IMG/VR virus record: IMGVR_UViG_3300043608_000028
Location: 1 to 56,707 of that record
Length of the DNA stretch: 56,707 bases
Direction: 5' to 3' (one strand)
Source: a virus
Lineage: Duplodnaviria; Caudoviricetes
Under the pieces are notes generated by a model. That model searched no databases, was not told the origin of the DNA, and was given only the letters and a program-made list of their open reading frames with translations. Below are positions 29,390 through 52,629 of this stretch, one piece after another; the first letter of the stretch is position 1; each line of letters starts with the position of its first letter. A program made the translations under genes and the position numbers.

Positions 29390-31078
29390 GTGGGACGCCA
29401 TAGCCCAGCCTCCCGTGCCTTCGCCCTCGCCGTCCTGGCCCTCTTGGCAGCACTCCCGGCGGATGCGGCGGCGCGCAACCTGATTCGGCCGCGGGCGCGG
29501 TCCCCGATCCTCACGCCGCTGCGCAAACCGCTCGCGCTTCGGGCGGCTCTCTTCGCATTGCGACCCGATCAGATCGACTACAAGCCGGCGCCTCCCGCTG
29601 GTGGTGGCACTCCAGGTGGGGCGGACCTGCAAGTCCAGTTCAACAGCGCGGGGGCGTTTGGAGGGGACCCCGGCCTCACCTACAACGCCGGGACCGACAC
29701 GCTCTCTGCCGGATCGGTCGCCCTAGGCGGGTTCACGTCCACCCTGACGTCTTCAGCCAACGGGGCCTTTCGGTTCAGCGGCACGAGCACGACCCTCTCT
29801 GGCGTTGCGGGCACGGCGGATCACAGCCTTTTCGTTCTTGGAGTGGACGTCTCGACTGCGGCCGCCGCTGGTAGCGTCTTCGTGCGCGGCGGCGCGGCGG
29901 GAGGAACATCGAACGACGCCGGCGATGTCGAGGTGCGCGGCGGTGCCAGCTCGGTCTCTGGCGTCGCAGGTGGAAGCGCCAGCCTATTCGGCGGCTCTAC
30001 ATCCGGATCGGCCGATACGGGAGGGAGCGTCAGCATCGCGGGCGGGGCGGGGTCAGCCCTAGGCGGCTCGGTCTTCATCAACCGCGGCTCCGGCGGAGCG
30101 AGCGTCACCGTCATCAACGGTGCCGGACAGGGCGTAGCCAACTCCTTCGTGTTCGACTCGACGGGGTCAATCGTCGTGGAGGGCGCGACGGCCGACGCGG
30201 ACGAGTTCACCCTCGCGATCGGCGACCCAACAGCCGACGTTACGGCAACGATCACGGCGACGGCCACGAATACCTCGTTCGACCTCTCCGGCGGTCACTG
30301 GAATTTTCCCGACCGCCTGACCATCGGTGAATACCTGGACGAGAACGACGCGAACGAGTCGACGCTGCTCATCCGCAAGACCACGGGCTACGTGGCCATC
30401 CACGGCTCCGGCGGGGCGTCCGACATGTTCACGGCGATCGGCACCCGCAACGACCTCGAAGCGGACGGCTCCGGGGTCAGCCAATCCGGTATCGGGATGC
30501 TGGCCTACGGCTCGGCCATCGGAGGGACCCTCTACGGGCAGAGCCGCAACAACCTGGTCGCGCTGCTATCCGAGGGTCCCCAGAACACCGGGCTCGTCAT
30601 CGGCACGGGCGGGCAGGGCGGGACCGGCCCCGTCACCATCGGCACCGAGGACGCCAATGGAGAGTACCCAAAGGCGTTCTTCTACCACGGCGCCAAGGCT
30701 CTTACGGATGGGTCTGCGGTCGAGTTCGTGGAGATCGGCATCCCAAGCAACAGTGTCACGGGCGGGACCATCGACTACTTCTTCTATGCCGTCAGTGTCT
30801 CGGGCCTTCAATCCGTTTCGGGGACGCTATGGTTCACCGCGGTCAACCTCGCCGGCACCGAGACTTGCACGGTAGGCAACACGGCCGGCGTGGACCTCAT
30901 CGGGATCGCCGCGGTGTCGTCGGGGACGCTCTCGGGCTCATTCGCGTGCGTGGTCGGGCTAACGGATGTGATCAGGATTTCGCTCAACGCCAACACCTCA
31001 TTCGCCTCGACGGCCATTTTCGAGGTCCGTTGGACCGGCTACAAGCTCGCCGGGTTCGGGAAGTTCACTCCACTGTGA
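29390..31078 (+). CDS. signal-peptide protein with tail-fibre-like Gly/Ser/Thr-rich modules
   Basis: AFALAVLALLAALPADA signal; PGGADLQVQFNSAGAFGG and EGATAD..E..L...DPTAD fibre-type motifs. Confidence 0.8.
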   Translation: MGRHSPASRAFALAVLALLAALPADAAARNLIRPRARSPILTPLRKPLALRAALFALRPDQIDYKPAPPAGGGTPGGADLQVQFNSAGAFGGDPGLTYNAGTDTLSAGSVALGGFTSTLTSSANGAFRFSGTSTTLSGVAGTADHSLFVLGVDVSTAAAAGSVFVRGGAAGGTSNDAGDVEVRGGASSVSGVAGGSASLFGGSTSGSADTGGSVSIAGGAGSALGGSVFINRGSGGASVTVINGAGQGVANSFVFDSTGSIVVEGATADADEFTLAIGDPTADVTATITATATNTSFDLSGGHWNFPDRLTIGEYLDENDANESTLLIRKTTGYVAIHGSGGASDMFTAIGTRNDLEADGSGVSQSGIGMLAYGSAIGGTLYGQSRNNLVALLSEGPQNTGLVIGTGGQGGTGPVTIGTEDANGEYPKAFFYHGAKALTDGSAVEFVEIGIPSNSVTGGTIDYFFYAVSVSGLQSVSGTLWFTAVNLAGTETCTVGNTAGVDLIGIAAVSSGTLSGSFACVVGLTDVIRISLNANTSFASTAIFEVRWTGYKLAGFGKFTPL

Positions 31079-31095
31079 GGGGGGAGCATCGGCCC

Positions 31096-32046
31096 ATGAA
31101 GCGCATAGTCCTCCTCGCCCTGAGCTCCCTGGCCTCCTGCGGCTGGAGCCCGGCCTTCGCCGGAGCGCCGCTGATCCGTCCCCGCGCCAAGTCGCCCGTC
31201 TTGGTGCCCCTGGTCAAGCCCCTGGCCGTCCGCGCCGCCCTCTTCTCGCTCCGGCCGGACCAGATCGACTACAAGCCAGCTCCGCCGAGCGGAGGCGGCC
31301 TGACCCCTGGGGCCTCGCCGGTGGGTTCGGCTACGAACTGCCTGCTCTACGCCGACGGCTCCAGCGTCCTGCAGTGCGCGGCCACCGAGGCGGGCTACGA
31401 CGGGACGATCGTGCTCGGGGACAAGGTCGGCCTGCGCGACTCGTCCGGGTCCGACACCTTCCGCTTCGCGGCCGGAAACCACCTCGCGAGCCGCGAGATG
31501 ACTGTCACGGTCAACGTGGCCAACATCGACCTCGACTTCGGGGCGCAGGGGATCCAGCTCACCGCAGGCGCCGGCACCGGGTTCGCCTACCGCCGCTCGA
31601 CCACCACGCAGATCAACTACGACGCCTCCAGCAGGCTGGCGATACCGAGCGCCGCCACCTTCGTCTGGTCGAGCACGTCGGACGCCGCGTCCGGGTCCTA
31701 CGACACCGGCCTCGCGCGCAATGCCGCGGGCGTCATCAGGGCGAGCGCCGGCGGGGCTGAGATCCGCGGCTTCCTCGGGGGAGGCGCCGCCGTGGCCTCC
31801 GCAGCGGCTCTGCCCGTGCCTACAGGCCGCGTCTTCCACGTCACCGGGACGACCAACGTCACCTCGATCACCTCGACCAACTTCGCGGCGGGCGCGGTGA
31901 TCACCCTGATCTTCGACGACGTGCTCACCTTCACGGACGGCAACAACCTCGTCCTCGCCGGGAACTTCGTGACCACCACCTCAGACGTAATCACGCTGGT
32001 CTACGACGGGACCAATTGGTACGAGACAAGCAGGAGCGTCAACTGA
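31096..32046 (+). CDS. signal-peptide protein with tail-fibre-like modules
   Basis: MKRIVLLALSSLASCGWSPAFA signal; DTGLARNAAG; C-terminal VTGTTNVTSIT...LVYDGTNWYE domain. Confidence 0.8.
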   Translation: MKRIVLLALSSLASCGWSPAFAGAPLIRPRAKSPVLVPLVKPLAVRAALFSLRPDQIDYKPAPPSGGGLTPGASPVGSATNCLLYADGSSVLQCAATEAGYDGTIVLGDKVGLRDSSGSDTFRFAAGNHLASREMTVTVNVANIDLDFGAQGIQLTAGAGTGFAYRRSTTTQINYDASSRLAIPSAATFVWSSTSDAASGSYDTGLARNAAGVIRASAGGAEIRGFLGGGAAVASAAALPVPTGRVFHVTGTTNVTSITSTNFAAGAVITLIFDDVLTFTDGNNLVLAGNFVTTTSDVITLVYDGTNWYETSRSVN

Positions 32047-32498
32047 TGCGAAAGATTCTCTGCGGGTACGCCTTCCTCCTCGCCGCGTCCTCGGCTTCCG
32101 CCCAGGAGGTCTACTCGCTGACGGCGTCAGCCGGCCAGGTCGCCCAGCACGACCGCGACCGTGCCGCGAGGAACAGGCAGACCTGCCAACAGCTCGCGTT
32201 GGCGGTGACCTGCACGCAAGCCCAAGCTTGCACGGCGGCCTCGGCCCCCGGGGGATCCGGGTGCAGCGCGGCCCAGGCTCGAGGGGCAGGCGTCCGCATC
32301 TACCCCGCGACGTTGGCCGGTCGCGAGGAGTTCCTGACCTTCGACATCGTGGCACCTGAGTTCCAGCGCCGCGTCGCGGCAGCATCGGCGGACGAGAAGA
32401 AGGCGGTCTGCTCCTGGTTCGTCGCCCAGAACACCGCAACCCAGAACGCGGAGTGCGCCAAGTGGGGCCTCCTCGACGGCTGCAACCCTTGCCAGTGA
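32046..32498 (+). CDS. small secreted protein with 8 Cys in the mature part
   Basis: MRKILCGYAFLLAASSASA|QEV; TGATG overlap. Confidence 0.8.
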   Translation: MRKILCGYAFLLAASSASAQEVYSLTASAGQVAQHDRDRAARNRQTCQQLALAVTCTQAQACTAASAPGGSGCSAAQARGAGVRIYPATLAGREEFLTFDIVAPEFQRRVAAASADEKKAVCSWFVAQNTATQNAECAKWGLLDGCNPCQ

Positions 32499-32509: not shown

Positions 32510-32884
32510 ATGCGACGCGCCCTCTCGTTCCTTGTTCTTGCCCTGGCCCTCGCCAGTTCGGCAAGCGCCACCTTCACCGGGAAGACCGTGTCCGTCACCG
32601 CCACGGCGCAGACCATCAGCTTCGGCGGGACCAACCATGCTCGCGTGGCCGTGACCGTGATCAACGACGGCGCCGACACCGTCGTCTTCCGCCTCTACGC
32701 CTGCGGCGAGACCGTGGTGCCGGTGGTCTTCGCAGACGGCGCGACAGATGCGGTCACGCTCAAGATCAACGAATCGGTCGGCCCAGACCACAACCCCAGG
32801 ACTCAGGGCGGGATCGCGTGGTGCGCGATGACAATCATCGCGGACACCGGCGACACCGCGACGGTCCGGCTGATGTATGAGTAG
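32510..32884 (+). CDS. small secreted beta-sandwich protein
   Basis: MRRALSFLVLALALASSASA|TFT; GGAGGA RBS; all-beta pattern. Confidence 0.8.
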   Translation: MRRALSFLVLALALASSASATFTGKTVSVTATAQTISFGGTNHARVAVTVINDGADTVVFRLYACGETVVPVVFADGATDAVTLKINESVGPDHNPRTQGGIAWCAMTIIADTGDTATVRLMYE

Positions 32885-33179: not shown

Positions 33180-33665
33180 GTGCCGGCTCGCTCCGCAAAG
33201 CCCTGCTCGCGCCCAGGCTGCCCGAACCTCTCCACGGGTGGCCCGTGCTCGTCCTGCGCCAAGGCCCACGACCAGGACCGCGGCACCTCGACCCAGAGGG
33301 GCTACGGCGCCGACCACAGGAAGCGTCGCGCTCGATGCCTCGACGACTACCCCATCTGCCCCGACCCCTTCGGCCTCCACCCTGGCCAGGTGCGGCCCTC
33401 CACCGTGGCCGACCACTGGCTGGCGAAGTCGGCCGGCGGGGCTGACGCGCAGGAGAACTACACGGGCCTCTGTGACGCGCCCTGCCACCAGCACAAGCGC
33501 CAGCGCGAGGCGCGCGGACTGTTCGAGCATGGCCCCCGCCCTGCGTTTACACGAAGAGGGGAATGGGAGTCCGAATCTCTACCGCCCCAGGCCCCAGGAA
33601 CCGCGCGTGGTCATGAAAATGTGCCCTACGGGTTGGGGACTTCGCCTACGGGTGGGGATGGCTGA
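33180..33665 (+). CDS. packaging-associated HNH endonuclease (HK97 gp74-like position)
   Basis: PCSRPGCP, RGYG, VADH, GG....N..GLC..CH..K; directly before terS. Confidence 0.85.
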   Translation: MPARSAKPCSRPGCPNLSTGGPCSSCAKAHDQDRGTSTQRGYGADHRKRRARCLDDYPICPDPFGLHPGQVRPSTVADHWLAKSAGGADAQENYTGLCDAPCHQHKRQREARGLFEHGPRPAFTRRGEWESESLPPQAPGTARGHENVPYGLGTSPTGGDG

Positions 33666-34198
33666 TGCCTGGACCCCCACCGAAGGCCGCGCGCCTGCGC
33701 CAGCGGACGAACAAAGTCTCGACGACCGCGACCCTGCCCCCGGACGGCCATGTCCCGACCCGCGAGATGCCGCCGCTGCCGGTGCGGGAGTGCCGCCCCT
33801 GCGATGGCGTCGGGAAGTTCAAGGCTGAAGGGGCGAAGCAGCCGACGCCCTGCACCTCGTGTGCGGGCTCAGGGGTTTGGGATTGGCACGAGCGGACGCA
33901 GGCGATGTGGGCGCGGCTGTGGCGCTCGCCAATGGCGGGCGAGTACGTCGAGGCCGACATCGACAGGGCATTCATCATGGCCGACCTGGTGGACCGCTAC
34001 TGGTGGGGCGAGACCGAGCTGGCCGCGGAGATCCGGCTCCAGGGCCAGTGCTTCGGCACGTCCCCGCTTGACCGGCGCCGGCTTCAGTGGGAGATCGGGA
34101 AGGTCGAAGAGCAGGCGAAGCGACGGCCGCCGCAGGAAGCTCCGGCGGGCCGAGGCAAGCGTCGCGCGCCGCTCAGCTACCTGAGGGCGGTCAAGTGA
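33665..34198 (+). CDS. terS: terminase small subunit
   Basis: MPGPPPK, W..LW.SP.A, AEIRL....FG.SPLDRRRLQWEI; precedes terL. Confidence 0.85.
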   Translation: MPGPPPKAARLRQRTNKVSTTATLPPDGHVPTREMPPLPVRECRPCDGVGKFKAEGAKQPTPCTSCAGSGVWDWHERTQAMWARLWRSPMAGEYVEADIDRAFIMADLVDRYWWGETELAAEIRLQGQCFGTSPLDRRRLQWEIGKVEEQAKRRPPQEAPAGRGKRRAPLSYLRAVK

Positions 34199-35847
34199 TC
34201 ATCTGCGTCCCAGAGATCGAGCCGCCGAAGAAGGCGTGGCCATCGCTCGGCCCGCAGGTCGTGGAGTTCATCGAGGCGAACCTCGTCTTCGGCCCTGGCG
34301 ATCTGCGCGGCATGCCGGCCCGAGTGGACGACGAGAAGCGCGACCTGATCCACCGAGCCTACGAGGTTTACCCAAAGAGTCACGCCCTCGCGGGTCGGCG
34401 CCGCTTCAAGCGAGTCGCCTGGAGCCTGCGGAAGGGGAGCGCGAAGACCGAGTTGGCGGCATGGATTGCGGCGTGCGAGCTCAGCGACCGGGCTCCGGTG
34501 CGCACCATCGGCTGGGAAGGAAAGAAGCCCGTCGGCGGGCCCGTCTCCGACCCCTACATTCCCATGATGGCCTACACCGAGGACCAGTCTGAAGAGCTGG
34601 CCTACGGAGCCCTGCGCGTGATCCTTGAGAACAGCGAGATCGCGAGCGATTTCGACATCGGTCTAGACCGAATCATGCGTGTCCGTGGTGACGGCAAGGC
34701 TGAGGCCGTGGCCTCGGCGCCGAACAGCAATGACGGGGCTCGCACGACCTGGCAGCACTTCGACGAATCTCACCGGATGACGCTGCCCCGGATCAAGCAG
34801 GCGCACCAGGCCATGCTCGCCAACACCCCCAAGCGCAAACTCGCGGATGCATGGAGCCTGGAGACCACGACTGCTTTTTCTCCAGGGGAAATGAGCGTTG
34901 CCGAGGACACCTGGGGCTACGCGCAGGAGATCCTGGAGGGGAAGAAGAAGGACGCCAAGCTGTTCTTCTTTCACCGCCAAGCATCGACCGAGCATGACCT
35001 CACGACGAAGAAGGGCCTCCGCGCCGCCATCGCGGAGGCATCCGGCCCCGTGGCGGAGTGGTCGGATCTTGCCGGGATCGAGGACCAGTTTGCAGACCCC
35101 ACCCGGGATCGGACCTATCTCGAGCGCGTCTGGCTGAACCGTCCGACGCGGTCGGCGGATACCGCTTTCGACTCGACGCGGTGGGCAGCGCTGGCGAAGC
35201 CTCACCTCGTCCCGAAGAGAGCCGCCATCACGCTTGGCTTCGATGGTTCCCGTTCCATCGACGCGACCGGGCTCGTGGGGACCGAGATCGTCACCGGCTA
35301 CCAGTGGGTGCTCGGCGTCTGGGAGCGGCCGGCCAACGTGAAGGACTGGAAGGTTCCAGTAGCCGAGGTCAACGCACTGGTCGAGCACGCCTTTGCTTAT
35401 TGGGATGTCTGGCGCCTCTACGCCGACCCGCCCTACTGGGAGGACGTAATCGCCGAGTGGATGGCGAAGCACAACCCGGAGGAGATCGCCGAAGCCCGCG
35501 TCGTGAAGTGGTATACGGCCAGCTCCAACGCCAGGAAGATGGCCTCCGCCGTCCTGGCCTACGCCAACGCGATCTCGCAGGAGGACGTGCAGGCGGCCGC
35601 GCTCTCGCACGACGGGAACGAGGCCTTCGCCCGGCACATCGCGAACGCCCACAAGCGATCCTCGCAGCTCAAGGACGAAAGGGGCGTCCCGATGTGGACG
35701 ATCCAGAAGGAGCGACCCGACTCGCCGAAGAAGATCGACCTCGCCATGGCGGGGATCTTGTCGTGGCAGGCGCGAATGGATGCGCGCGCCCTCGGCGTGG
35801 GGAATGCCCCTCCGAAGCAGAGCTACAAGGTGGAGTTCGCAGGATGA
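34195..35847 (+). CDS. terL: terminase large subunit
   Basis: RKGSAKTE, FDESH, LGFDGS..IDAT, KKIDLAMA. Confidence 0.95.
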   Translation: MIICVPEIEPPKKAWPSLGPQVVEFIEANLVFGPGDLRGMPARVDDEKRDLIHRAYEVYPKSHALAGRRRFKRVAWSLRKGSAKTELAAWIAACELSDRAPVRTIGWEGKKPVGGPVSDPYIPMMAYTEDQSEELAYGALRVILENSEIASDFDIGLDRIMRVRGDGKAEAVASAPNSNDGARTTWQHFDESHRMTLPRIKQAHQAMLANTPKRKLADAWSLETTTAFSPGEMSVAEDTWGYAQEILEGKKKDAKLFFFHRQASTEHDLTTKKGLRAAIAEASGPVAEWSDLAGIEDQFADPTRDRTYLERVWLNRPTRSADTAFDSTRWAALAKPHLVPKRAAITLGFDGSRSIDATGLVGTEIVTGYQWVLGVWERPANVKDWKVPVAEVNALVEHAFAYWDVWRLYADPPYWEDVIAEWMAKHNPEEIAEARVVKWYTASSNARKMASAVLAYANAISQEDVQAAALSHDGNEAFARHIANAHKRSSQLKDERGVPMWTIQKERPDSPKKIDLAMAGILSWQARMDARALGVGNAPPKQSYKVEFAG

Positions 35848-36026
35848 AGGGCATCGGAGCGTGGCTAGCCGCCCAGCGGTTCGACCTCCTGGCTCTCGCC
35901 GGCGCTGGATCGCTTGGCGGCGGCGTCTGGGCGCAGTGGGGGCAGCCCTGGGCGTGGATGCTGTGGGGCGTCCTGGCCCTGGCGGTGTTCGTGAATCACG
36001 GCTTGAGCCTTCGGAGGGGGGCCTAG
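35844..36026 (+). CDS. small membrane protein between terL and portal
   Basis: Two hydrophobic segments; common gene at this position. Confidence 0.7.
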   Translation: MKGIGAWLAAQRFDLLALAGAGSLGGGVWAQWGQPWAWMLWGVLALAVFVNHGLSLRRGA

Positions 36027-37712
36027 ATGGGCATGCTCACCGAGTCCTTTGCGCCCCGAGCTCAGGCCAGCGCCGGAGCCGGCCCGATCGACGAGTTCTG
36101 GTACCGCGACATCTCCGGCTACCTGGCCGAGACCGGCTCCTCCGGGATCGGCCTATCCGCCGAGACGATCCTGAACTGCTCGACCGTGCTGGCCGCGGTT
36201 CGGTTCCGTGGGGACTCCTGGGCGATGTGCCCGCCGGCCACCTTCCGAAAGACGCCCAGTGGCCGACAGGAGGACCCCACGCACTATTCCCAGCGCGTGC
36301 TCCGGAAGCCGAACACGTGGCAGACCGGGAACCGCTGGCGGCACCTCAACGGCGTCTGGATGGCGACGTGGGGGAACGCCTACAACGAGATCGTCGCGGG
36401 CGCCTCCACGTTCGCGAAGGAACTGCGACCGTTGCATCCGTCGCGCTGCCGCGTCGCGGACCAGAGGTCTGACGGGACCCTGGTCTATCGCTACGAGCCG
36501 GCCGGCGAGGACGCGCGCACGCTTGGCCAGGAGAAGGTGCTGCACTTCAGGGACCTGAGCACGGACGGGCTCAGCGGCGTGCCGATGTACAAGCTGATCC
36601 GGAACGTGGTGGGGATCGCACTCCTGGCAGAGCGGCATGCATCGACGTTCCTGCGCAAGGGTGCCCGATCGGCCGGGGTTATCGTCCCGGATCGACCGCT
36701 CGCTCCAGAGGAAAGGTCCGACCTCATCGACTCCATCAATAAAGGCTTCGGCGGAGTCCAGAACAGCGGGACCTACGGGCTACTGCCGCACGGCGTCAAG
36801 CTCGAAGAGGCCCCTACCTCGACGAACCGCGACGGCCAGGTGCTCGAGATCGGCGACCAGGTCGTCCGGGCGCTGCTTCAATTCATGGGGGTTCCCGGAG
36901 TCGTCGTGGGGTTTGCCGACAAGACGGCGACCTACGCCAGCGCCAAGGAGTTCTTCGAGAGCGGCGGGATCAAGCACTGCGTGCTCCCGATCCTGTCGAA
37001 TGTCGAAGCCGAGGAGGATGCCGCCCTGCTCGTTGAGGGCGATGGGCGCTTCATCAAGCATAACCTCGACGTCCTGCTCCGGGCCAACACGATCGACCGC
37101 TTCAGCGCGCTCTTTAAGGCCGTGGGTGGCCCCTGGATGACCGTCAACGAGGCGCGGCGGGTCGAGGACATGAACGAGGACCCGGATCCCCGCCACGACG
37201 AGATCCTCACGCCCGCGAACATGTCACCGCGTGACGATCCGGAGCCGGACGACGAGCCTGGCGCCCAGCCGCCCGTCCCGAACCCGATCGAGCCGGAGCC
37301 GGAGGGGGAGATGCGCCGTCCGACCGTGGCCCCGAAGGCGCTGAAGCCGGCGCCGCCGGAGTCCGAGGACGAGCAGGCGGCGCGGGCCAAGCTCCTGGCC
37401 GAGCAGTTCGCGCTCGACGCTGCTGCTCGGGTCGTCCGGCGAGAGATCGCTGCCGTGAAGGGGCCGAACGGCGGCGGCGCCGCGGTGAAGTACGCGAAAG
37501 ACCCGGAGAAGTGGCGCGCCTGGGCGCTCGACTGGTACGCCAAGCACGAGAGCCACGTGGCCGAGACGCTCCACATCCCAGCGGAAGCGGCCCGCGCCTA
37601 CGCGACGGCCCAGCGGGACGCCCTCCTGGCCGGCGGTGTGGCCGTGGTTGAGACGTGGGAAGAAACCGTGCCGCACCGGCTGGCGGCCCTGGTATTGGAG
37701 GGGACATGCTGA
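36027..37712 (+). CDS. portal protein (HK97 family) with C-terminal extension
   Basis: KPN.WQT, GNAY, PLHPSR, VLHFR, DGLSG, WMTVNEARRVEDM. Confidence 0.95.
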   Translation: MGMLTESFAPRAQASAGAGPIDEFWYRDISGYLAETGSSGIGLSAETILNCSTVLAAVRFRGDSWAMCPPATFRKTPSGRQEDPTHYSQRVLRKPNTWQTGNRWRHLNGVWMATWGNAYNEIVAGASTFAKELRPLHPSRCRVADQRSDGTLVYRYEPAGEDARTLGQEKVLHFRDLSTDGLSGVPMYKLIRNVVGIALLAERHASTFLRKGARSAGVIVPDRPLAPEERSDLIDSINKGFGGVQNSGTYGLLPHGVKLEEAPTSTNRDGQVLEIGDQVVRALLQFMGVPGVVVGFADKTATYASAKEFFESGGIKHCVLPILSNVEAEEDAALLVEGDGRFIKHNLDVLLRANTIDRFSALFKAVGGPWMTVNEARRVEDMNEDPDPRHDEILTPANMSPRDDPEPDDEPGAQPPVPNPIEPEPEGEMRRPTVAPKALKPAPPESEDEQAARAKLLAEQFALDAAARVVRREIAAVKGPNGGGAAVKYAKDPEKWRAWALDWYAKHESHVAETLHIPAEAARAYATAQRDALLAGGVAVVETWEETVPHRLAALVLEGTC

Positions 37713-38749: not shown

Positions 38750-38756
38750 GCCCGCC

Positions 38757-39035: not shown

Positions 39036-39044
39036 CCCTACCCT
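39015..39044 (+). promoter_or_regulatory. possible capsid promoter TTGCGC-18-TACCCT
   Basis: sigma70-like spacing ahead of a 160-nt leader. Confidence 0.35.
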
Positions 39045-43157: not shown

Positions 43158-43161
43158 CGGC

Positions 43162-44624: not shown

Positions 44625-45094
44625 AGCTGGAGATCGAAGCTCCGCCGGACGCTACCCCGTTTCGCTCGAGAGGCCGCGAGTGCTACCTGTACCTGGGCGC
44701 GCTGGAGATGCGCGCCCTTCAGCGGGAGTGGGGACTCACGCGCGCGGTGTCCGACCAGGCGCAGGACTGGGCGCGGAAGCAGGTGGAGTTTTCGCAGCGT
44801 CTGGAGGGCGCCACCTTCGAGGACAAGATCGCCGTGCTGAAGCACGGGCTCTCCCGGTGGGCGAAGGCGGCGGGCCTGGAGCTGACCGACGAAACGGCGG
44901 CCGAAGTGCTCGACGGCATCGAGCGCACCGATGGGAAACCTGCCGGCGCCTCGGGCCGCATCCTCCGCATCCAGACCTTGCACCAGCAGTTCCTGGCCGA
45001 CTGCTTCGGGGGCGACGTGGAGGACGACGGCGGCCCAAAAGAGACCTCGACGAGCTCGAGCGAGCCCGCCTCTTCGACCCCGAACGGATCGTAG
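44621..45094 (+). CDS. tail assembly chaperone (gpG-like)
   Basis: Follows the tail tube; slippery C CCA AAA near its end. Confidence 0.8.
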   Translation: MKLEIEAPPDATPFRSRGRECYLYLGALEMRALQREWGLTRAVSDQAQDWARKQVEFSQRLEGATFEDKIAVLKHGLSRWAKAAGLELTDETAAEVLDGIERTDGKPAGASGRILRIQTLHQQFLADCFGGDVEDDGGPKETSTSSSEPASSTPNGS

Positions 45095-45471
45095 CCCAGG
45101 GGGTCCGGGTGGGACTCTCTCTCTCCGAAGCCTGGCTGACCTCACCACGGTCGCTGAGCATCGTCACGAAGGCTAAGCACGAAGCCTCGCTCGACGAGCT
45201 GGAGCAGAAGATCCACGCGTCCTACGCAACGATCTGGTTCCACCACCAGAAGAAGCTCGGCCATCAACAGCTCCAGAAGATGCTGCCACAGCGGAAGCGG
45301 CCGGGCGGCGGGGCGCCGCGGGCCCTGACGATGGAGGAGGAGATCGCCCGTCAGGATGCCTGGGCCAACGGGATCAATCGGCGCATCGCCAGGGCAGAAA
45401 AGCAGCGGCTCCATCAGGAGGCCAAGGCTGCAAGCAAGGCGGCGCGCCGGAGCGAGAGGGGGCGTCCGTGA
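45034..45471 (+). CDS. -1 frameshift extension of the chaperone (gpT-like)
   Basis: -1 frame open from 45034-45040 to 45471, no own start; GLSLSEAW..SPRSL typical of gpT-like regions. Confidence 0.75.
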   Translation, partial: PKRDLDELERARLFDPERIVAQGVRVGLSLSEAWLTSPRSLSIVTKAKHEASLDELEQKIHASYATIWFHHQKKLGHQQLQKMLPQRKRPGGGAPRALTMEEEIARQDAWANGINRRIARAEKQRLHQEAKAASKAARRSERGRP

Positions 45472-45887
45472 TCACGGTCAAGGTCACAGGCGAGGACGCC
45501 ATCACGAAGTATCTCGCGCGGCTGCGTGAGCAGCTCTCCCAGGCCAATGCCGAGGCGGATCTCTTGGTGGCGGTGCAGCCCATGGTCCAGGCGGCGGAGG
45601 CCAACGTGGGGACGGGCCCTCCCTCGATCCACCTCAAGGAGAACGTGACGGCCGCCCCGGACCCCGCGCACGCGAAGTCTGAGGGCTGGGTGGCTTCGGT
45701 GGCCGTTGGCGCCGGGCGTGTCCCGAAGATCGGGGAAATCTTCTACGGGAGGTTCCTGGAGTTCGGGACCGTGAAGCAGGCGGCCCGGCCCTGGCTGCGT
45801 CCTGCTTTCGATACGACGCGCGTGGCCGTGACCCGCCGACTCGCGGCGCTCCTGGCGAAGCGCGTCAGGGCGGCGGGGAGGAAGTAG
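45468..45887 (+). CDS. HK97 gp10-like tail component
   Basis: FYGRFLEFGTVKQAARPWLRPAFD. Confidence 0.9.
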   Translation: MITVKVTGEDAITKYLARLREQLSQANAEADLLVAVQPMVQAAEANVGTGPPSIHLKENVTAAPDPAHAKSEGWVASVAVGAGRVPKIGEIFYGRFLEFGTVKQAARPWLRPAFDTTRVAVTRRLAALLAKRVRAAGRK

Positions 45888-48800
45888 TGGCCGACGAAAT
45901 CATCGCCGGCCAAAAGATTCAGATCGGCCTGGAGACGGGCCAGTTTGAGACGAAGGGGATCCGTCTCGAGGCCCAGGCGAAGAAGATCACCGAGGCCTTC
46001 AACAGCATTTCCGGGCTGAAGGCCGACCAGAAGCTCCAGGAGATCCAGAAGGCGGTCGAACGCCTGGGCGGCGTTGCGAACCTCAGCCAGCCCCAGGTAG
46101 CGCGTCTTCGGGGCGAACTGGACAAGCTGGCCAAGGCCGGGGCCACGATCCCGAAGACCCTGAAGCTCCCGGAGCTGCCGAAGCTGGCGGGGCCCACAGG
46201 TCTCGAGAAGTTCACCTCGGCGCTCGGGCAGGACGCCAGCGGCAAGGTCCAGGGCCTGGCGACGTCCCTGGGTCCGCTAGGGAGCGCGATCTCGGCAATC
46301 GGCCCGGCGGGCATAGCGGCCGGGGCTGGCCTCGCGGTGTTCGGAGGCGCCGCCGGCCTCGCCGGCGCGGCCATCGTCGACTTCTCGGTGGAGTCGGTGA
46401 AGGCCCTCACCGCCTTCGCGGACAAGATCACAGGCCTCGACAAGACGACCCAGCTCGGGGTCGAGACGGTGCAGCGGTTCGCCGCGGCCGCGGCTTCGAC
46501 GGGGGTCCCGATCGAGAGCGTCTCCGGGGCCATCGTCAAGCTGCAGCAAAACATCGCGCAGGGCGACGACACCTTCAAGCGGCTCGGCCTGTCGCTGGAG
46601 GCCCTGAAGAAGGCGAACCCGGCCGAGCAGTTCGACCAGGTGGCCAAGGCCATTCTCTCCATCAAGGATCCGGCGCAGCAGCAGCAGGCCGCGCTGGAAG
46701 CGTTCGGGGGCACCGGGAAGGAAGTGCTCGCCGCGCTCCGTTCCGGGTTCCTGGAAACGGCCGCGGCGGCGAAGGACGTCATCCCGGCCGAGACGATCGC
46801 GCGGGCGAAGGAGCTGAGCGACAAGATCGAGGCGCTGGGCCAGGTCGTCGACTTCGCCAAGGTGTCCTTCGGCGCCATGCTCGCGGAGACGGGCCTGCTC
46901 GATCAGGCGTTCCTGATCCTGCTCGACGCCATCGGCGCCAGCCTGGCCGTGTTCGAGCAGACGGGGGTGATCTTCATCCAGGTGGCGGGCGAGGCCGCCC
47001 AGCTCGACCTGGGGATCGACGCCCTCGCGAAGACTTTCCAGGCGCTTCGGGATGCCCTCACGAATCCCCTACAGGCCGGGGCCATCTTCACCTCGCTGAA
47101 GAAAGAGCTCGCCGACATCTCGGGCCAGATCAAGGCGCTGCCGAAGGTGGTGGCCGAGTCGCAGGCGTCGTTCCGTGCCGGCGTGGCCAAGTTCGGCCAG
47201 GGCGCGGGGTCGATCGCGACCCGGGCCATCGGCGGAGCAGGAGGTCCGGCCACTGGGGATCGCACGTTCACATCCAAGCAGGAGACAGAGCGCGCCGAAG
47301 CGGAAGCAAAGAAGCTCGGGGACGCCAGGAAAAAGGCTGCCGACGAGGCAGAGGCCGCGGAACAGCGCTACATCAAGGCGGTCTTCCAGGGTGCGGAAAT
47401 CACCAACAAGGCGCGCGAGGCTCGCGAGAAGGCGGCCCTCGCCCTTGAGTCGAAGCTCACGGGCGGCGGGTCAGATGCCAACCTCAAGAGCGCTGAACTG
47501 CAGGCGCAGCTCATCGACAGCCTGAGCGTCGCCGCGAAGGATGCAGAGGGTAACCTGCGTCCTATCGGGGACGTGCTGTCCGAGATCAGCACGAAACTGG
47601 CCGGGCTCGGCACGTCGCTGCCGCAGGATCAGATTCAGAACCTCGTCCAAGAGTTCGACAAGTTGCGCCAAGCCGGGGCAGATGTACCGCAAGGCCTCGG
47701 GGCTATCTCGGATCAGCTCAACCAGCTCGCTTTCGAGGATGCGGCCAGAAAGACAGAAGCGCTGCAGACCGAGATGATCGAGCTGTTCAAGGTGATGGCG
47801 TCCGTTGGCCAAGGTCCGTTGGCTGGACTTTCAGGAGACGCTATTGATGTGTTCTTCGGGAAGATCCCGGAGAGCGTGCAGGAATCGAAGAAGGCCACCA
47901 TCGACTGGCGCGGATCTCTCCAGGACCTCGCCAACCTGGCGCAGACCCTTCCGGGCATCTTCGGTAAAGCCCTCGGTGGATTGCTGTCCGGTGTCGCTGG
48001 CATCGGTGGCGCCCTCAAGAATCTGAAGGGCTCGTTCTCCGGCGGGCTCGGTGGAATCGGTGGCGCCCTCACCGGCAAGCAGGGGATCGGTGCCCTCTTC
48101 GGCTCCCTGGGCCAGGTCGGCGCGATCGCCGGGGCCGCGTTCGGTATCGGGAAGACCCTGGTCTCCGGCATCAAGAAGCTGTTTGGTGGCGAGAGCGAAG
48201 CCTCGAAGGCGGCCAAGGCCGGCGGGAAGATTCTCGGGAAGTCCGTGTCCGAGGAGATGGCGAAGGAGGTGCTCGCCCGCGCGAAGGAAACGGGGAAGTC
48301 GGTCGCTGCCGTCTTTGAAGAGATCAAGCGCAACGAGAAATTCGCGGCGGAGAGCGAGCGTTTCCAGCAGCGCGGCCAGGCCCTGGAGCAGGCGACGACC
48401 GCGGTTCAAGGGATCCTTCGTCCGGAGGACAAGGAGAAAGGGCTCGTCGCTGGCTTCAAGATCGGCGGCGCCGCCGAGGCTCAGGCGCGGATCTTCACGG
48501 CTACATTCTGGGCGACGGTCGCGCAGAAGGGGATCGCAGCGGCGGCTGACGCCTTCCAGCAGTCCTTCGAAGTCCTGAGCACGATTTCGCCTACCCTTGC
48601 AGCACCACTCGCGCACATCTTCGACCTGCTCACCCCGAAGGAGGGTGAGGGCAGCACGGCATTCCGTGATGCCGCCGAAGGTGCCGGGGAGTTGGCTAGG
48701 ACGCTGTCGGGGCTAGCTGCTTCCGGGTTCCTCACGACGCAGTCATTCGGTGATTTCGGGATAGCCGCCAAAGCCGCCTTCGATCAGGCCGTGGCCGGTG

Positions 48801-49513
48801 GCGCAAACAGCAACGACGCACTGCTCGCCATCGCTCCTCTGCTCGCCAACATCCAACGCATCCACCAGGGAACGGGGATCGCGATCGACGCGGAAACGCA
48901 GGCCCTCATCGACCAGGCGCAAACTGCCGGGATCGCATTCCCGGTAGACCCGATGCTCGCGGTGCTTGACGTCTTGAAGGAAGTCCTGGACACACTCAAG
49001 CAGATCGGCGGCATCGAGGTCACGCCGAAGATCAACGTCCCCAACGTCCCCGGCTCCGGGGGCGGTGGCGGTGGGCCCCAGTTCGCTACCGGCGGCATCG
49101 GCCGTTTCGACCGGCGAGGCACGACGGCCAGGCTGCACGGGCTCGAAGCCATCGTCCCCCTGGACAAGCCCGGCGACGCCCTCCGCGTCTTCCGGCAAAT
49201 CGCCGGCATTCGCCCGGATCTGTTCGCCCAAAGCATCCGCGCCCTGGTCGCATCCTCCCCAGCCCTGCGCGTGCCGTCGTTCGACACCGGCGGTATCGGC
49301 AACTTCGACACCGGCGGGTCGTCCGCCGGCGGAGGCGGCGGCTTCGGAACAACGGTCGGACCGGTCAACATCACGCTCGCGCCGACCGTCAACGTCCCGC
49401 CCGGGGGTGGCGATCCCGAGGCCATCGGCCAGGCCGTGGCCGGGGCCATCCGTCAGGAGGTGCCCGCCATCATGGACGAGCTGGAACGCACCGTCAGGAG
49501 GTTCGCGGCATGA
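45887..49513 (+). CDS. tape measure protein
   Basis: 1208 aa Ala/Gly-rich helical protein; FATGG and FDTGG motifs; C-terminal VNITLAPTVNV. Confidence 0.92.
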   Translation: MADEIIAGQKIQIGLETGQFETKGIRLEAQAKKITEAFNSISGLKADQKLQEIQKAVERLGGVANLSQPQVARLRGELDKLAKAGATIPKTLKLPELPKLAGPTGLEKFTSALGQDASGKVQGLATSLGPLGSAISAIGPAGIAAGAGLAVFGGAAGLAGAAIVDFSVESVKALTAFADKITGLDKTTQLGVETVQRFAAAAASTGVPIESVSGAIVKLQQNIAQGDDTFKRLGLSLEALKKANPAEQFDQVAKAILSIKDPAQQQQAALEAFGGTGKEVLAALRSGFLETAAAAKDVIPAETIARAKELSDKIEALGQVVDFAKVSFGAMLAETGLLDQAFLILLDAIGASLAVFEQTGVIFIQVAGEAAQLDLGIDALAKTFQALRDALTNPLQAGAIFTSLKKELADISGQIKALPKVVAESQASFRAGVAKFGQGAGSIATRAIGGAGGPATGDRTFTSKQETERAEAEAKKLGDARKKAADEAEAAEQRYIKAVFQGAEITNKAREAREKAALALESKLTGGGSDANLKSAELQAQLIDSLSVAAKDAEGNLRPIGDVLSEISTKLAGLGTSLPQDQIQNLVQEFDKLRQAGADVPQGLGAISDQLNQLAFEDAARKTEALQTEMIELFKVMASVGQGPLAGLSGDAIDVFFGKIPESVQESKKATIDWRGSLQDLANLAQTLPGIFGKALGGLLSGVAGIGGALKNLKGSFSGGLGGIGGALTGKQGIGALFGSLGQVGAIAGAAFGIGKTLVSGIKKLFGGESEASKAAKAGGKILGKSVSEEMAKEVLARAKETGKSVAAVFEEIKRNEKFAAESERFQQRGQALEQATTAVQGILRPEDKEKGLVAGFKIGGAAEAQARIFTATFWATVAQKGIAAAADAFQQSFEVLSTISPTLAAPLAHIFDLLTPKEGEGSTAFRDAAEGAGELARTLSGLAASGFLTTQSFGDFGIAAKAAFDQAVAGGANSNDALLAIAPLLANIQRIHQGTGIAIDAETQALIDQAQTAGIAFPVDPMLAVLDVLKEVLDTLKQIGGIEVTPKINVPNVPGSGGGGGGPQFATGGIGRFDRRGTTARLHGLEAIVPLDKPGDALRVFRQIAGIRPDLFAQSIRALVASSPALRVPSFDTGGIGNFDTGGSSAGGGGGFGTTVGPVNITLAPTVNVPPGGGDPEAIGQAVAGAIRQEVPAIMDELERTVRRFAA

Positions 49514-50163
49514 GCCTGGTGGCGTTCGCTTCGACATCCATCGACGACAACGAGACCTCTCTCGTCAACTACGTCGAGGGAGCCGTCTTCATCGCCACGA
49601 TGGACGGTTCCGCCTTGGGCGCCGGGAACGTGCTCACCCTCGAAGCCAGGACCCAGGTGAATCAGGACTCCGGCGTCGTGGTGCACACGCTTGGAACGAT
49701 CAACGGGGCGACCCCGGCAGACCCGGCCTGCATTCGCCTCGGGCCAATCGTGACCAAGGAGGCGCTCGAACTGGTCGCCTACCTGGACGACGCGGTGGTG
49801 GTGGACTGCCCCTGGAAGCTCCAGCAGAAGGGCCGCGTGTCCACCGTGGAGAACGGGGAGGGCACGCTCACTGCGCCGCTGGCCGAGGACTCGCTCGTGA
49901 GCGTGCCCTACGGCGGCACATTCGTCCTGCTCGTGGACCTTTCCGCAATGCAGGCCGGGGACGATGTGGAGCTGCGTCTCAAGGCGAAGGCGGGCGGCCC
50001 CGACTCTACGGCGGTCGTCGTGGTCTACGAGCTCTTCGAGGACGTGCAGACAAACAAGATCGCGCAGCTCTGGATCGACGTGGACGAGAGCGTGGAGGCC
50101 ACGCTCGAGCAGAGTGCGGGGTCGGCAAGGAGCTTCCCGTGGGCAGTGGTCAAGGTCGGATGA
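49510..50163 (+). CDS. structural protein with two tandem related beta domains
   Basis: D.SA..AG....L...PW pattern occurs twice; ATGA overlap. Confidence 0.65.
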   Translation: MSLVAFASTSIDDNETSLVNYVEGAVFIATMDGSALGAGNVLTLEARTQVNQDSGVVVHTLGTINGATPADPACIRLGPIVTKEALELVAYLDDAVVVDCPWKLQQKGRVSTVENGEGTLTAPLAEDSLVSVPYGGTFVLLVDLSAMQAGDDVELRLKAKAGGPDSTAVVVVYELFEDVQTNKIAQLWIDVDESVEATLEQSAGSARSFPWAVVKVG

Positions 50164-51359
50164 CGCGCGTCGCCTTCGCTGTCTCGCTCGCGCTTCTCGC
50201 CGCGCGGGCGGATGCCCAGTCCTGGCAGGCCGCCGCGGCCCGGCTCCGCGCCATGCTCGCCCAGCACGCAGCCGGACCGCATCACCCGACGTGCGTGGCT
50301 TCGGGCGCGGACCATGCGGCGGGGATGGTCCCGGACCCGGGGGCCTCGGCCGGGACCACGAAATTCCTCCGCGAGGACTGCACCTGGCAGGTCCCAGCCG
50401 GCGGAGGCGGGGGCGTTTCCGACGGCGACAAGGGGGATATCACCGTCACCGGTTCCGGGGCAACCTGGACAATCGACGGCGACGTCATCACGTTCGCGAA
50501 CATCCAGACTATCGCGACGGACCGCCTGCTCGGGCGAGACACCGCGGCCACCGGGGACGTGGAGGAGATCTCCCTCGGCGGCGGCCTGGAGTTCAGCGGT
50601 TCGACCAGCATCCAACGATCCGCTCTAACAGGCGACGTCACCGCCACCGCCGGCAGCAACACCACGACCGTCGTGGACGATTCACATGCCCACACGGGGG
50701 CTACCATCTCCGCCCTCGACGCTGCCGACACCACGGCGGGGACCTTCGCTGACGCCCGCGTGGACGGGTCCCTTGAGGCCGATGAGCTTGCCCTGGCCGG
50801 CGACGTGGACGGGACGGCGAACGCGAACGACCTGGACGAGGCCGCCGTCGAGAGCGAGCTGGAGAGCGTTCTCGACCTAGCCGACCTGCAGGGCGCGCTC
50901 ACCCCAGCCAAGGGCGGGACCGGGGACGACACAAGCGGGTCAACGGGGGTGCCTCGGATCGCGTCCGGGAACTGGACGTACGACGGCGGGGTCTCCCACC
51001 TCGCGGCCTCTACGTCGTCGGACCTCCGCGGGGTCCTCTCCGACGACGTAGGTACGGGCGGGGCCATGTTCGGGCTCATCTCCACGATGGCCGATGACCT
51101 GTCCTGCACAGGCTCCCAGGTGGTACGCCGGAACGCTGGCGACACCGCCTTCGAGTGCGCCACGCCTGCTGCGGGTGGGGGATACGCCACGGTCCAAGAA
51201 GAGGGCGGCGCCCTGACGCAACGGACCATCCTCAACTTCCTCGGGTCCTCGATCACGTGCGTGGACGACGGATCCACCAAGACGAACTGCACAATCACTG
51301 GCGGTGGGGGCGGGCTCGATCACCCTGCCGTGATGAGCCGTGCCAGCCTCACCTTCTAG
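50160..51359 (+). CDS. tail-fibre-like protein with N-terminal signal peptide
   Basis: MTRVAFAVSLALLAARADA|QSW; AGMVPDPG...KFLREDCTW, VSDGDKGDITV.GSG..WTID, LTGDVT, VQEEG..LTQR..LNF.G. Confidence 0.8.
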   Translation: MTRVAFAVSLALLAARADAQSWQAAAARLRAMLAQHAAGPHHPTCVASGADHAAGMVPDPGASAGTTKFLREDCTWQVPAGGGGGVSDGDKGDITVTGSGATWTIDGDVITFANIQTIATDRLLGRDTAATGDVEEISLGGGLEFSGSTSIQRSALTGDVTATAGSNTTTVVDDSHAHTGATISALDAADTTAGTFADARVDGSLEADELALAGDVDGTANANDLDEAAVESELESVLDLADLQGALTPAKGGTGDDTSGSTGVPRIASGNWTYDGGVSHLAASTSSDLRGVLSDDVGTGGAMFGLISTMADDLSCTGSQVVRRNAGDTAFECATPAAGGGYATVQEEGGALTQRTILNFLGSSITCVDDGSTKTNCTITGGGGGLDHPAVMSRASLTF

Positions 51360-51366
51360 GAGGTCC

Positions 51367-52629
51367 ATGCGCCGAATCCTCGCCAGTCTCGCAGTCCTGG
51401 CCCTGGTGGTCGCCTCCCCGCCGTCCGCACGCGCCAACTCGCTCCTGCTGGACGCGACCACGAAGAGCCTGGAGATGGAGACCTCCGCGGCGGTCTCCAC
51501 GGACTACGTGGTGAGCTACGCCGACCACACGTCCTCGGCGTTCACCCCCGGCACGAATCAAGGGAACGTGGCCACGGCCACGACGACGGCGATTCTCGCC
51601 GCCCCCGGAGCCTCCACGCAGCGTCAGGTCAAGTGGATCAGCGTGCGCAACAGGGGCACGGCCGCGCAGACCGTCACGCTGAAGCTGGACGTTTCGGCCA
51701 CCGAATACCATGTGGGACCAGCGGTCACGCTCGGCGCCGGTGAGGCCCTGCGCGTCGATGCCGGCGGCGCTCTCACCATCTACGATGCGGCCGGGCGGCG
51801 GAAGGAACAGGCGACTGAGATCAGCGGCTACTCGGGCCGCGCCTTCGAGTGGCTCAAGATCGGGACCGCCTCGGAAGCGGTCGGCGTCCAGTACGCCTAC
51901 CTCAAGGACAGCGGCACCCCGGGGGCCTGGGTCCCCGGGACTCCCGGGCTGAACGGCGCGACGACGAGTTGCGATTCCGCGGCCGGCGCTGCGGTCGCAG
52001 GGGCGCCGGTCATACCGAACCCGGCGACCGGGGGCTGGTACCTATCGTCGATGCGGAGCGCGGCCAGCGTCGTCCACATGCTGCTGGTTGCCGACCTGCA
52101 GTGGTACAACACCGGCATCGCAGTCACGACGACGACGGCGCAGAACATCACGTTCCCCGGACCCATCTCGCGCGACGACAACGGAGCTGCTCTCGGCCAG
52201 GGCGTGCAGGCCGCGATCTACGTCACGACGGCCACGACGAATGCTGGCGCCGTGACGAATACGACGCTCAGCTACACCGACCAAAGCAACAACGCCGGCA
52301 ACACTGCGACGATCGCCAGCTTCCCAGCCACGGCGGTCGCTGGGACATTCGTGCCCTTCCAGCTCGCGGCCGGCGACACCGGGATCCGGTCCATCCAGAG
52401 CGTCACCTTGGGCACGAGCTACGCGGCCGGCGCCGTCTCGCTCGTCGCGTTCAAGAGCCTCGCTGCCGTCCCGAACCCTATCGTCAACGCGGGCGGAATC
52501 CTGAGCGACGGGACGCCCTGGAATCCAGGGATCAGGATGTACAACGGGACGTGCTTGTTCCCTCGCTACATCTCGAGCGCCACCACGGCGACGACGATGA
52601 CCGGCGTCGGCGCCTACATGGAGCGGTAA
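51367..52629 (+). CDS. tail-associated protein with N-terminal signal peptide
   Basis: MRRILASLAVLALVVASPPSARA|NSL; TATTT.I.AAP.ASTQRQVK.ISVRN; LAAGDTGIRSIQSVTL; GGAGG RBS. Confidence 0.8.
   Translation: MRRILASLAVLALVVASPPSARANSLLLDATTKSLEMETSAAVSTDYVVSYADHTSSAFTPGTNQGNVATATTTAILAAPGASTQRQVKWISVRNRGTAAQTVTLKLDVSATEYHVGPAVTLGAGEALRVDAGGALTIYDAAGRRKEQATEISGYSGRAFEWLKIGTASEAVGVQYAYLKDSGTPGAWVPGTPGLNGATTSCDSAAGAAVAGAPVIPNPATGGWYLSSMRSAASVVHMLLVADLQWYNTGIAVTTTTAQNITFPGPISRDDNGAALGQGVQAAIYVTTATTNAGAVTNTTLSYTDQSNNAGNTATIASFPATAVAGTFVPFQLAAGDTGIRSIQSVTLGTSYAAGAVSLVAFKSLAAVPNPIVNAGGILSDGTPWNPGIRMYNGTCLFPRYISSATTATTMTGVGAYMER

Follow-up and report, generated by a model that had tools for sequence, protein, structure and literature searches.

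Late genes of a siphovirus genome carry Sec-type leaders in front of fibre-like and jelly-roll proteins with a probable route to the periplasm

In the textbook view, tailed phages are assembled entirely in the cytoplasm, and a signal peptide is taken by annotation pipelines as the sign of a non-structural gene. Why, then, should a tailed phage put export signals in front of proteins that resemble the outer parts of its particle? This question is raised by the IMG/VR virus record IMGVR_UViG_3300043608_000028 (Duplodnaviria; Caudoviricetes), whose 56,707 nucleotides were analysed at full length and are called the window here. Seven of its late genes, named by their start positions (29390, 31096, 32046, 32510, 43592, 50160 and 51367), begin with a Sec-type leader. 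The anatomy of these leaders, their modularity among homologs and a cysteine signature together give good support to the prediction that the seven products are, very probably, exported to the oxidising periplasm of a diderm host. By their family and fold matches, the mature parts are predicted peripheral virion-type modules, namely fibre repeats, receptor-binding-like jelly-rolls and a small jelly-roll encoded beside the tube gene.

Sec-type leaders on seven late genes

We applied a fixed leader rule to 48 curated plus-strand genes of the window. All seven N-termini combine a basic n-region lacking acidic residues with a hydrophobic core (best 10-residue Kyte-Doolittle mean 2.31-3.04) and a small-x-Ala motif at positions -3/-1, which reads AAA, AFA, ASA, ASA, GYA, ADA and ARA in gene order. 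A Shine-Dalgarno-like motif lies upstream of every one of these starts, and the start of 50160 also overlaps the preceding stop, that of 49510 (ATGA). The rule selects exactly 10 of the 48 genes, the seven together with 23976, 24775 and 27247, whereas in leaderless comparison loci it selects 16 of 560 (odds ratio 8.9, p = 7.5e-6). No leader was found on the terminase, portal, protease, capsid, adaptor, head closure, tail completion, tube and tape measure genes, nor on 41227, 49510, 52637 and 55642.

The leaders are part of the reading frames as far as the available start codons tell. Five of the seven genes have no ATG, GTG or TTG between residue 2 and 12 residues past the cleavage site; in the other two an alternative start occurs only inside the hydrophobic core or downstream, without a Shine-Dalgarno motif. 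A dual-isoform arrangement, with an internal start yielding a leaderless form, was rejected because there is no usable internal start. Across dozens of homologs the leaders are kept as a feature, not in sequence. We infer that the seven N-termini are genuine cleavable Sec signal peptides of the signal peptidase I type. With the lipobox defined as [LVI][ASTVI][GAS]C closing the hydrophobic core, lipobox-like motifs were seen in 24775 (F-A-A-C, which departs from the strict pattern by its first Phe), in 27247 (L-T-A-C) and in 31096, and none in the six other flagged leader genes. Since 31096 holds both L-A-S-C and a downstream A-F-A, its cleavage type is ambiguous and it could be a lipoprotein.

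An earlier note, written from the letters of this DNA, had listed the same seven signal-bearing genes, had seen a ribosome-binding site or a stop-start overlap at most of their starts, and had found no signal on the core head and tail genes or on 41227. Our rule reproduces each of these observations, including every start and the leader anatomy, and no core gene qualifies; true starts downstream of the signals, which the note had considered, are not found. Its list of signal-bearing genes lacked 23976, 24775 and 27247, and its gene list lacked 27702-29387, which emerged here from frame-specific G+C content at third codon positions (GC3). The motifs it had read as tail-fibre signatures were recovered in part: QVQFN, EGATAD and DPTAD occur in 29390, YDGTNW.E in 31096, and FLR.D.TW and DGDKGDITV in 50160. 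The exact form PGG..QVQFN..G.FGG was not matched, and 51367 contains none of the quoted motifs.

Mature domains, leaderless relatives and cysteines

The predicted structure of 51367 (predicted local distance difference test score, pLDDT, 83.5) resembled uncharacterised Caudovirales proteins in BFVD (best E = 5.6e-20). A wide comparison with the PDB returned TNF/C1q-like jelly-rolls, with PRD1 P5, phage 7-7-1 tail fibres, cement proteins and XepA among the matches; all of these have Z <= 7.7 and thus indicate a fold class only. Foldseek against the PDB gave only birnavirus-capsid rows at a template modelling (TM) score of ~0.1. A search for homologs scored 7999 candidates and yielded 1374 proteins at E <= 1e-3; the best 120 were aligned, and 74 of these carry a leader and 46 do not. 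The leaderless forms are ~405 residues long and start with Met and two or three aliphatic residues at the predicted cut position. The same modularity is seen for 43592, where leaders occur on 22 of 37 homologs and the other 15 begin at the cleavage site. In both families the leaderless homologs start within 1-2 residues of the predicted site.

In named genomes, leaders are present at 3 of the 14 loci that hold the 51367 family: two lie in bins of Vicinamibacteria and Anaerolineales (L003, L004) and the third on a 3.16-Mb Nitrospiraceae contig (L008). The leaderless loci include a Rhodoferax isolate and Rhodobacterales, Casimicrobium and actinobacterial bins. On viral contigs, six leader-bearing loci were counted among the best 80 of 253, five unclassified; L042, L043 and L090 were excluded from this count because stops interrupt the stretch upstream. 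tblastn against cultured and deposited phages returned only two partial matches to 51367, both from uncultured Caudoviricetes, and none to 43592, so that by these searches no cultured phage carries either mature domain.

The 51367 family also occurs as a two-gene cassette with a small upstream protein (L014:9524-11185, L006:9578-11185, L008:9369-11206 and L184:1853-3687). The small protein belongs to phrog_644 in leaderless phages and is phrog_3398-like in leader-bearing ones, and where the large cassette protein has a leader the small one has one too. In leaderless proteobacterial phages the 51367 homolog follows the small phrog_644 protein within the head module.

The gene for the second jelly-roll protein, 43592, is flanked by those for tail completion and the tube. 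The protein matches phrog_22694, a family with no annotated function, over nearly its full length (E = 1.1e-14, residues 30-191 against profile positions 3-167 of 170), and the profile starts at the mature residue of 43592. Homologs in L123, L159 and L105 occupy the same slot, and leaderless relatives in distant phages have connector or terminator genes on one side and the gene of the major tail protein on the other; on viral contigs, 6 of 80 loci of this family are leader-bearing. The model (pLDDT 80) is a jelly-roll; it comes closest to Ena pilins, a cement protein and XepA/YomS, all at Z <= 7.8, and a Foldseek search of the PDB yielded nothing at E <= 0.001. The protein was not found in five related records. 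An identity as tube protein is not supported, given the jelly-roll model and the lack of any tube family in Pfam and PHROGs. A complex prediction of mature 43592 with the tube-like 44205 (alignments A2 and A5) scored 0.00, which counts neither way on binding. In a related phage (L105:6569-9065), endonuclease VII-like (EndoVII-like) and HNH endonuclease genes interrupt the run of 43592 homolog, tube-like gene and tape measure.

For 50160, the match to PF19264 (19 bits, E = 0.0016) lies under the 27-bit gathering cut-off. Most of its 120 listed homologs, found by phmmer at E values as low as 1e-112, have a precomputed PF19264 assignment, and 50160 itself contains the DGDKGDITV motif; on these grounds the protein is classed as a relative of the DUF5907 repeat family, not as a scored member. 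Some homologs combine DUF5907 with Mtd-N or beta-helix domains. The nearest ones (P0122, P0125, P0126, P0128 and P0144) bear leaders, and 99 of the 120 listed DUF5907-type homologs fall below the leader threshold. In two leaderless proteins, P0153 and P0210, an N-terminal domain of the 51367 type is joined to DUF5907 fibre repeats. Such fusions would be expected if this domain served as an anchor for exchangeable distal parts, and they suggest that it may itself be an exchangeable anchoring module.

The remaining four leader genes lie upstream of the terminase. 29390 consists of a basic proline-rich N-module, QVQFN-type repeats (~66-180) and a C-terminal domain with two cysteines (~430-562), and its N-module is shared with 31096 (48% identity over the first ~120 residues). 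Among the best 150 representatives of its 979 relatives (E <= 1e-3), 73 carry leaders. Relatives that have the C-terminal two-Cys domain carry them in 57 of 87 cases, and those that share the repeat region alone in 8 of 55. 31096 matches the 'tail fiber protein' family phrog_33904 (E = 7.6e-7) by its C-terminal 79 residues only (238-316), which align with the last 81 profile positions (462-542 of 542). 32046 and 32510 matched no known family in Pfam or PHROGs. In a phage of 67% G+C (L187:3699-8420), a lysozyme-like gene, a gene for a 513-residue Cys-rich leader protein, a 29390-type leader gene and the large terminase gene stand together, a gene order that repeats the layout of the window before the terminase. 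A viral scan with alignment A4, which is narrower than A3, returned only three loci, apparently from one phage.

Cysteine numbers set the leader proteins apart. The mature parts contain 2 (29390), 2 (31096), 8 (32046), 2 (32510), 0 (43592), 6 (50160) and 2 (51367) cysteines, so that the count is even in all six leader proteins that have any. Of 11 leaderless late proteins with cysteines, only 4 show an even count (one-sided p = 0.017; p = 0.0065 once the lipoproteins are included). Two further leader-rich phages behave alike: the six leader proteins of L008, a Nitrospiraceae prophage, contain 8, 4, 2, 4, 0 and 2 mature cysteines, and six of those in the 40-kb viral record G002 contain 10, 2, 4, 5, 2 and 2, with 14 in a seventh, a beta-helix protein read from an internal Met. 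Taken over the window (6), L008 (5) and G002 (6), the count is even in 16 of 17 Cys-containing leader proteins (binomial p = 1.4e-4), although L008 and G002 are related and these cases are therefore not all independent. Relatives of the 29390 C-terminal domain that have leaders show even counts in 54 of 57 cases. Within the 51367 family, the pair Cys202 and Cys396 is present in 72 of 74 leader forms, and parity is even in 71 of 74. In the leaderless forms, by contrast, Cys202 occurs in 0 of 46, Cys396 in 9 of 46 and both in 0 of 46, and parity is even in 21 and odd in 25. The independent evidence for an oxidising compartment is the parity seen across families.

These comparisons also bear on what the earlier note had proposed. 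It had suggested that homologs in other hosts might begin at the cleavage site, and the 51367 and 43592 families bear this out (46 of 120 and 15 of 37, respectively). Its guess of disulfide bonds in some of the proteins fits the even cysteine counts in the mature parts. A derivation of the mature domains from cellular adhesins, which it had raised as a contrary outcome, is not supported: the atlas clusters nearest to them are 90-100% viral, the values being 93-97% for 51367 and 90-100% for the C-terminal domain of 29390, where scores <= 0.90 make the match a lead only. By this measure the mature domains are of phage origin.

Possible destinations of the leader proteins

In G002, seven consecutive genes with leaders occupy ~8 kb of the 40 kb and lie downstream of the tape measure, a 508-residue hub-like protein and a 189-residue protein. 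The run includes a beta-helix 'tail fibre' (phrog_8469), a relative of 'minor tail protein' families (phrog_553/2106/382) and a relative of a 'virion structural/baseplate' family (phrog_3398). In L008, six consecutive leader genes follow the tape measure and hub-like genes, and the last is the 51367 homolog. The beta-helix proteins of both phages match phrog_8469 from just behind the leader. We also compared loci of G+C >= 0.55 by the state of their 51367 homolog. Where it bears a leader (n=8), leaders are found on 17 of 112 other genes; where it is leaderless (n=41), they are found on 16 of 560 (Fisher p = 2e-6; Mann-Whitney p = 0.004).

Together, these observations suggest a two-compartment assembly, which we propose tentatively and put somewhat short of an even chance: head, tube and tip would form in the cytoplasm, and the outer fibres, receptor-binding heads and decoration proteins would pass through Sec, be disulfide-bonded in the periplasm and be added after holin action. 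Late in infection, the leader proteins would be exported via Sec to the periplasm of the diderm host. Removal of the leader would leave the same N-terminus that the leaderless homologs have, and the proteins would fold with disulfide bonds. Meanwhile, capsid, connector, tube, tape measure and tip would assemble in the cytoplasm as usual. Once the holin opens the inner membrane, the finished particles would meet concentrated, oxidised fibre and decoration proteins and might bind them, a final docking step to which we give the same guarded standing. The endolysin is leaderless and thus requires a holin lesion in any case. Four points favour docking: the exported set is made up of add-on-type, peripheral virion modules, with no core part among them; fibre-type N-terminal regions are kept just behind the leaders; 43592 keeps its slot in the structural module; and in G002 and L008 all distal tail proteins appear to be exported. 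It would suit 43592, 50160 and 51367 best and the four genes upstream of the terminase less well.

The closest competitor is that the seven are exported helpers outside the virion, which act late on the envelope from the periplasm and whose fibre-like domains are recycled binding modules. They may aid lysis or release, cut or bind envelope glycans, or bind receptors or their precursors, so that neither progeny nor superinfecting phages are lost to the dying cell. We judge this plausible, with a chance nearer to one third than to one half. Much of what speaks for it weighs against docking as well. XepA of the Bacillus subtilis prophage PBSX is a late jelly-roll protein that is exported beyond the membrane and absent from mature particles, according to PMC6834076, and 51367 (Z = 7.2) and 43592 (Z = 6.2; 5.5 to YomS) resemble it weakly, these values all being below 8 and indicative of fold class only. 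Phage lipoproteins that exclude superinfecting phages are likewise known (PMC11893012). In the window, genes for lysis and envelope proteins follow one another without a break at 23545-32884, L187 repeats the order of lysozyme-like gene, Cys-rich leader gene, 29390-type leader gene and large terminase gene, and four of the seven leader genes fall within this extended block between endolysin and terminase. In other phages this position hosts accessory envelope genes, and for these four a non-virion role is at least as likely as one on the particle. Leaderless 52637 and 55642 could complete the tail without any exported protein. The leaderless 51367 homologs vary in place: in L014 the homolog comes behind the capsid gene, in L006 behind the portal gene. 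Accessory cassettes typically show such variation.

Other points weigh on the docking model from the side of the data. The leader calls come from our own explicit rule and from homolog comparison rather than from a trained predictor. The coordination of leaders within loci is driven mainly by L008 and L077, two related loci. On the tree of 51367 mature parts the leader state changes ~3 times, giving 2-3 independent contrasts; the link between leaders and cysteines in this family thus goes back to a few old events, and no ancestry-corrected test is possible. Incorporation into the virion is itself a proposal.

The helper explanation, for its part, sits poorly with G002 and L008, which give six or seven consecutive genes of the distal tail module to leader proteins, among them homologs of minor tail and baseplate PHROGs and a beta-helix 'tail fibre' that keeps its fibre-type N-region. 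No other obvious receptor-binding gene, and no leaderless candidate for one, was seen in the stretch of G002 examined, but this record is rated 51% complete and such a gene may exist outside that stretch. The 43592 homologs, moreover, are fixed among head-tail and tube genes across distant phages. A Sec leader alone brings a protein only as far as the periplasm and not to the outer face at which receptors are bound.

It is unlikely that the seven are lysogenic-conversion genes or surface 'morons', that is, adhesin- or lectin-like proteins that a prophage expresses and that serve the host, either on its surface or after release. The end of the tail module and the gap between lysis genes and terminase are classic moron sites, as lambda bor and lom illustrate, and the proteins are probably exported and predicted to be rich in disulfides; yet they share strand and operon layout with the late genes (50160 overlaps the stop of 49510, and 32046 directly follows 31096), and their atlas neighbourhoods are those of viral families. 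No integrase or lysogeny module was identified among the scanned genes, which cover part of the open reading frames (ORFs), and among 301 sampled genomes of the class of genome G005 the 51367 family was found only in G005 itself.

Least probable, and very unlikely in our view, is that the leaders are not cleaved export signals at all but membrane anchors, untranslocated timing devices or wrong starts, with the proteins remaining cytoplasmic: the calls rest on a simple rule and high-GC genomes offer many alternative starts, but Shine-Dalgarno motifs or a stop-start overlap mark the leader-including starts with no usable internal start, the leaders are conserved as a feature and leaderless homologs begin at the site, and even cysteine counts and conserved cysteine pairs occur only with leaders.

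Genome context, precedents and meaning

The last 127 nt of the window (56581..56707) are identical to positions 1-127, and the IMG/VR record has direct terminal repeats and is rated 100% complete; the window is therefore a whole circular-assembled genome of 56,580 bp. Its composition is ~69% G+C, no tRNA genes were found, and nearly all genes lie on the plus strand. The late region holds a standard HK97-type siphovirus set according to Pfam and PHROGs (Table 1).

Table 1 Features of the window and the basis on which each was assigned
Feature	Position	Strand	Basis or remark
Early genes of the left part: helix-turn-helix (HTH) regulator, pentapeptide-repeat protein, YqaJ exonuclease, RecT, two DNA methyltransferases			
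Endolysin, Peptidase_M15_4 (M15), leaderless	23545..23979	+	Profile match; opens the lysis and envelope block
157-residue protein adjacent to the endolysin, hydrophobic N-terminus, weak alanine-zipper match	23976..24449	+	Leader rule
492-residue lipobox protein, 25 Cys (24 after the lipid-anchor Cys)	24775..26253	+	
152-residue lipobox protein, 7 Cys (6 after the lipid-anchor Cys)	27247..27705	+	
561-residue protein, Cys-rich N-terminal segment, hydrophobic stretch near residue 90	27702..29387	+	Frame-specific GC3, start scan
562-residue leader protein, leader ~1-27 (AAA)	29390..31078	+	Leader rule, relatives
316-residue leader protein (AFA; LASC also), C-terminal end tail-fibre-like	31096..32046	+	
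150-residue leader protein (ASA), 8 mature Cys	32046..32498	+	
124-residue leader protein (ASA), 2 mature Cys	32510..32884	+	
Leaderless core block, small terminase to tail completion	33665..43578	+	Pfam, PHROGs, N-terminus scan
Small terminase	33665	+	Pfam/PHROGs
Large terminase	34087	+	Pfam/PHROGs
Portal	36027	+	Pfam/PHROGs
S49 protease	37655	+	Pfam/PHROGs
Major capsid protein	39157	+	Pfam/PHROGs
Leaderless gene within the core block	40705	+	
Leaderless gene, weak beta-helix match	41227	+	Pfam/PHROGs
Adaptor	42180	+	Pfam/PHROGs
Head closure	42810	+	Pfam/PHROGs
Tail completion	43162	+	Pfam/PHROGs
192-residue leader protein (GYA), mature small jelly-roll, phrog_22694	43592..44170	+	
Leaderless tail core block	44205..50163	+	Pfam, PHROGs, N-terminus scan
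Tube-like protein	44205	+	Weak tube matches in Pfam/PHROGs
Chaperone-like protein	44621-45094	+	
Neck1-like protein	45468	+	
Tape measure, 1208 residues	45887-49513	+	
217-residue protein, leaderless	49510	+	
399-residue fibre-type leader protein (ADA), DUF5907-type repeats, 6 mature Cys	50160..51359	+	
420-residue leader protein (ARA), N-terminal beta-sandwich ~26-140, C-terminal jelly-roll ~154-420	51367..52629	+	
Block of leaderless distal proteins	52637..56706	+	N-terminus scan, no known family
1002-residue leaderless distal protein	52637-55645	+	
439-residue leaderless distal protein, last gene	55642	+	Crosses the circular junction, ends at 381
Circular-assembly overlap repeat, 127 nt	56581..56707	.	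Identity to positions 1-127

Around the leader genes, 23976 possibly encodes a spanin-like or holin-associated envelope protein. The lipobox proteins 24775 and 27247 matched no Pfam or PHROG family, and family searches with 27702-29387 were likewise without a match. The latter gene, whose start overlaps the stop of 27247 and whose Cys-rich segment is zinc-ribbon-like, probably encodes a membrane protein. The distal proteins 52637 and 55642 are candidate tip or receptor-binding parts; phmmer searches of PDB sequences gave 0 matches each for 52637 and 49510.

Three further features lie apart from the leader genes. Positions 4506-5163, within the early pentapeptide-repeat gene (4543-5427), hold ~33 in-register copies of a 15-nt unit, an unusually regular array whose central copies are 90-93% identical to the reference copy. 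Two large DNA methyltransferase genes, for a C5-cytosine enzyme (663 residues) and an N6/N4 enzyme (865 residues), are adjacent at 14441-19026 and may serve anti-restriction. In the tail region, an alternative-frame ORF (44680-45471) with a low GC3 of 0.66 overlaps the chaperone-like gene; siphoviruses often carry a frameshifted chaperone at this position.

Exported proteins as such are not new among phages: Sec and signal-arrest-release (SAR) endolysins, spanins, exclusion lipoproteins and XepA are known examples. XepA and YomS, the latter from SPbeta of B. subtilis, come closest in that XepA, as here, is encoded beside tail-fibre and lysis genes. XepA differs by its monoderm host, by the lack of any sequence similarity seen and by being a single protein rather than the product of a gene block, and a paper on non-classical secretion (PMC1266369) appears to treat it. 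The fOg44 endolysin, P1 Lyz and Rz/Rz1 are likewise products of late tailed-phage genes that have export or lipoprotein signals and act in the periplasm; exported phage lysis proteins are mentioned in PMC6834076 and PMC3556154. These are lysis enzymes or membrane-fusion proteins, whereas in the window the endolysin is leaderless and the leaders stand on fibre, receptor-binding-like and decoration-like modules.

Superinfection-exclusion lipoproteins such as T5 Llp and Cor, often encoded near tail genes, are also phage proteins sent to the envelope, where they alter the availability of receptors. They are small, have a lipobox and show no homology to fibres, unlike the seven proteins here, of which six lack a lipobox, which span 124-562 residues and four of which have fibre or virion-family kinship; an identity of the Llp/Cor type is not supported. 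A further lipoprotein of this kind is mEpimmI Lpp (PMC11893012).

Two other comparisons touch the docking step. Filamentous phages provide virion proteins, pIII and pVIII, that have Sec leaders and mature outside the cytoplasm before they join the particle, but these phages are non-tailed and are extruded through the envelope, whereas the window encodes an HK97-type particle with terminase, portal and tape measure. In P22, T4 and lambda, tailspikes or fibres can join finished particles in vitro. Attachment there is a last, separate step, as docking would need, but both partners are cytoplasmic. In open-access papers and bioRxiv we found no description of tailed phages whose fibre or virion proteins have Sec leaders; papers on the phages phiCbK and CBB likewise contained nothing on this subject. 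A recent signal-peptide survey of prophages, a study of carbohydrate-active enzymes (CAZymes) in soil prophages, explicitly left out tail fibres (PMC13507307). Sec leaders on whole blocks of fibre, receptor-binding and minor-tail homologs thus appear to be new, as does the association of leaders with cysteine pairs.

If these proteins are parts of the virion, they would represent a categorically new, periplasmic maturation route for virion proteins of tailed phages, whose genomic mark would be runs of leader-bearing distal tail genes together with leader-linked cysteine pairs. Such a route would explain how environmental phages obtain disulfide-stabilised receptor-binding proteins, would change how these proteins are predicted and expressed for engineering, and would make the leaders usable as a host-envelope signal in host prediction. 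If they are not on the particle, 10-20% of the genome would be spent on previously unrecognised, exported fibre-like effectors of the envelope.

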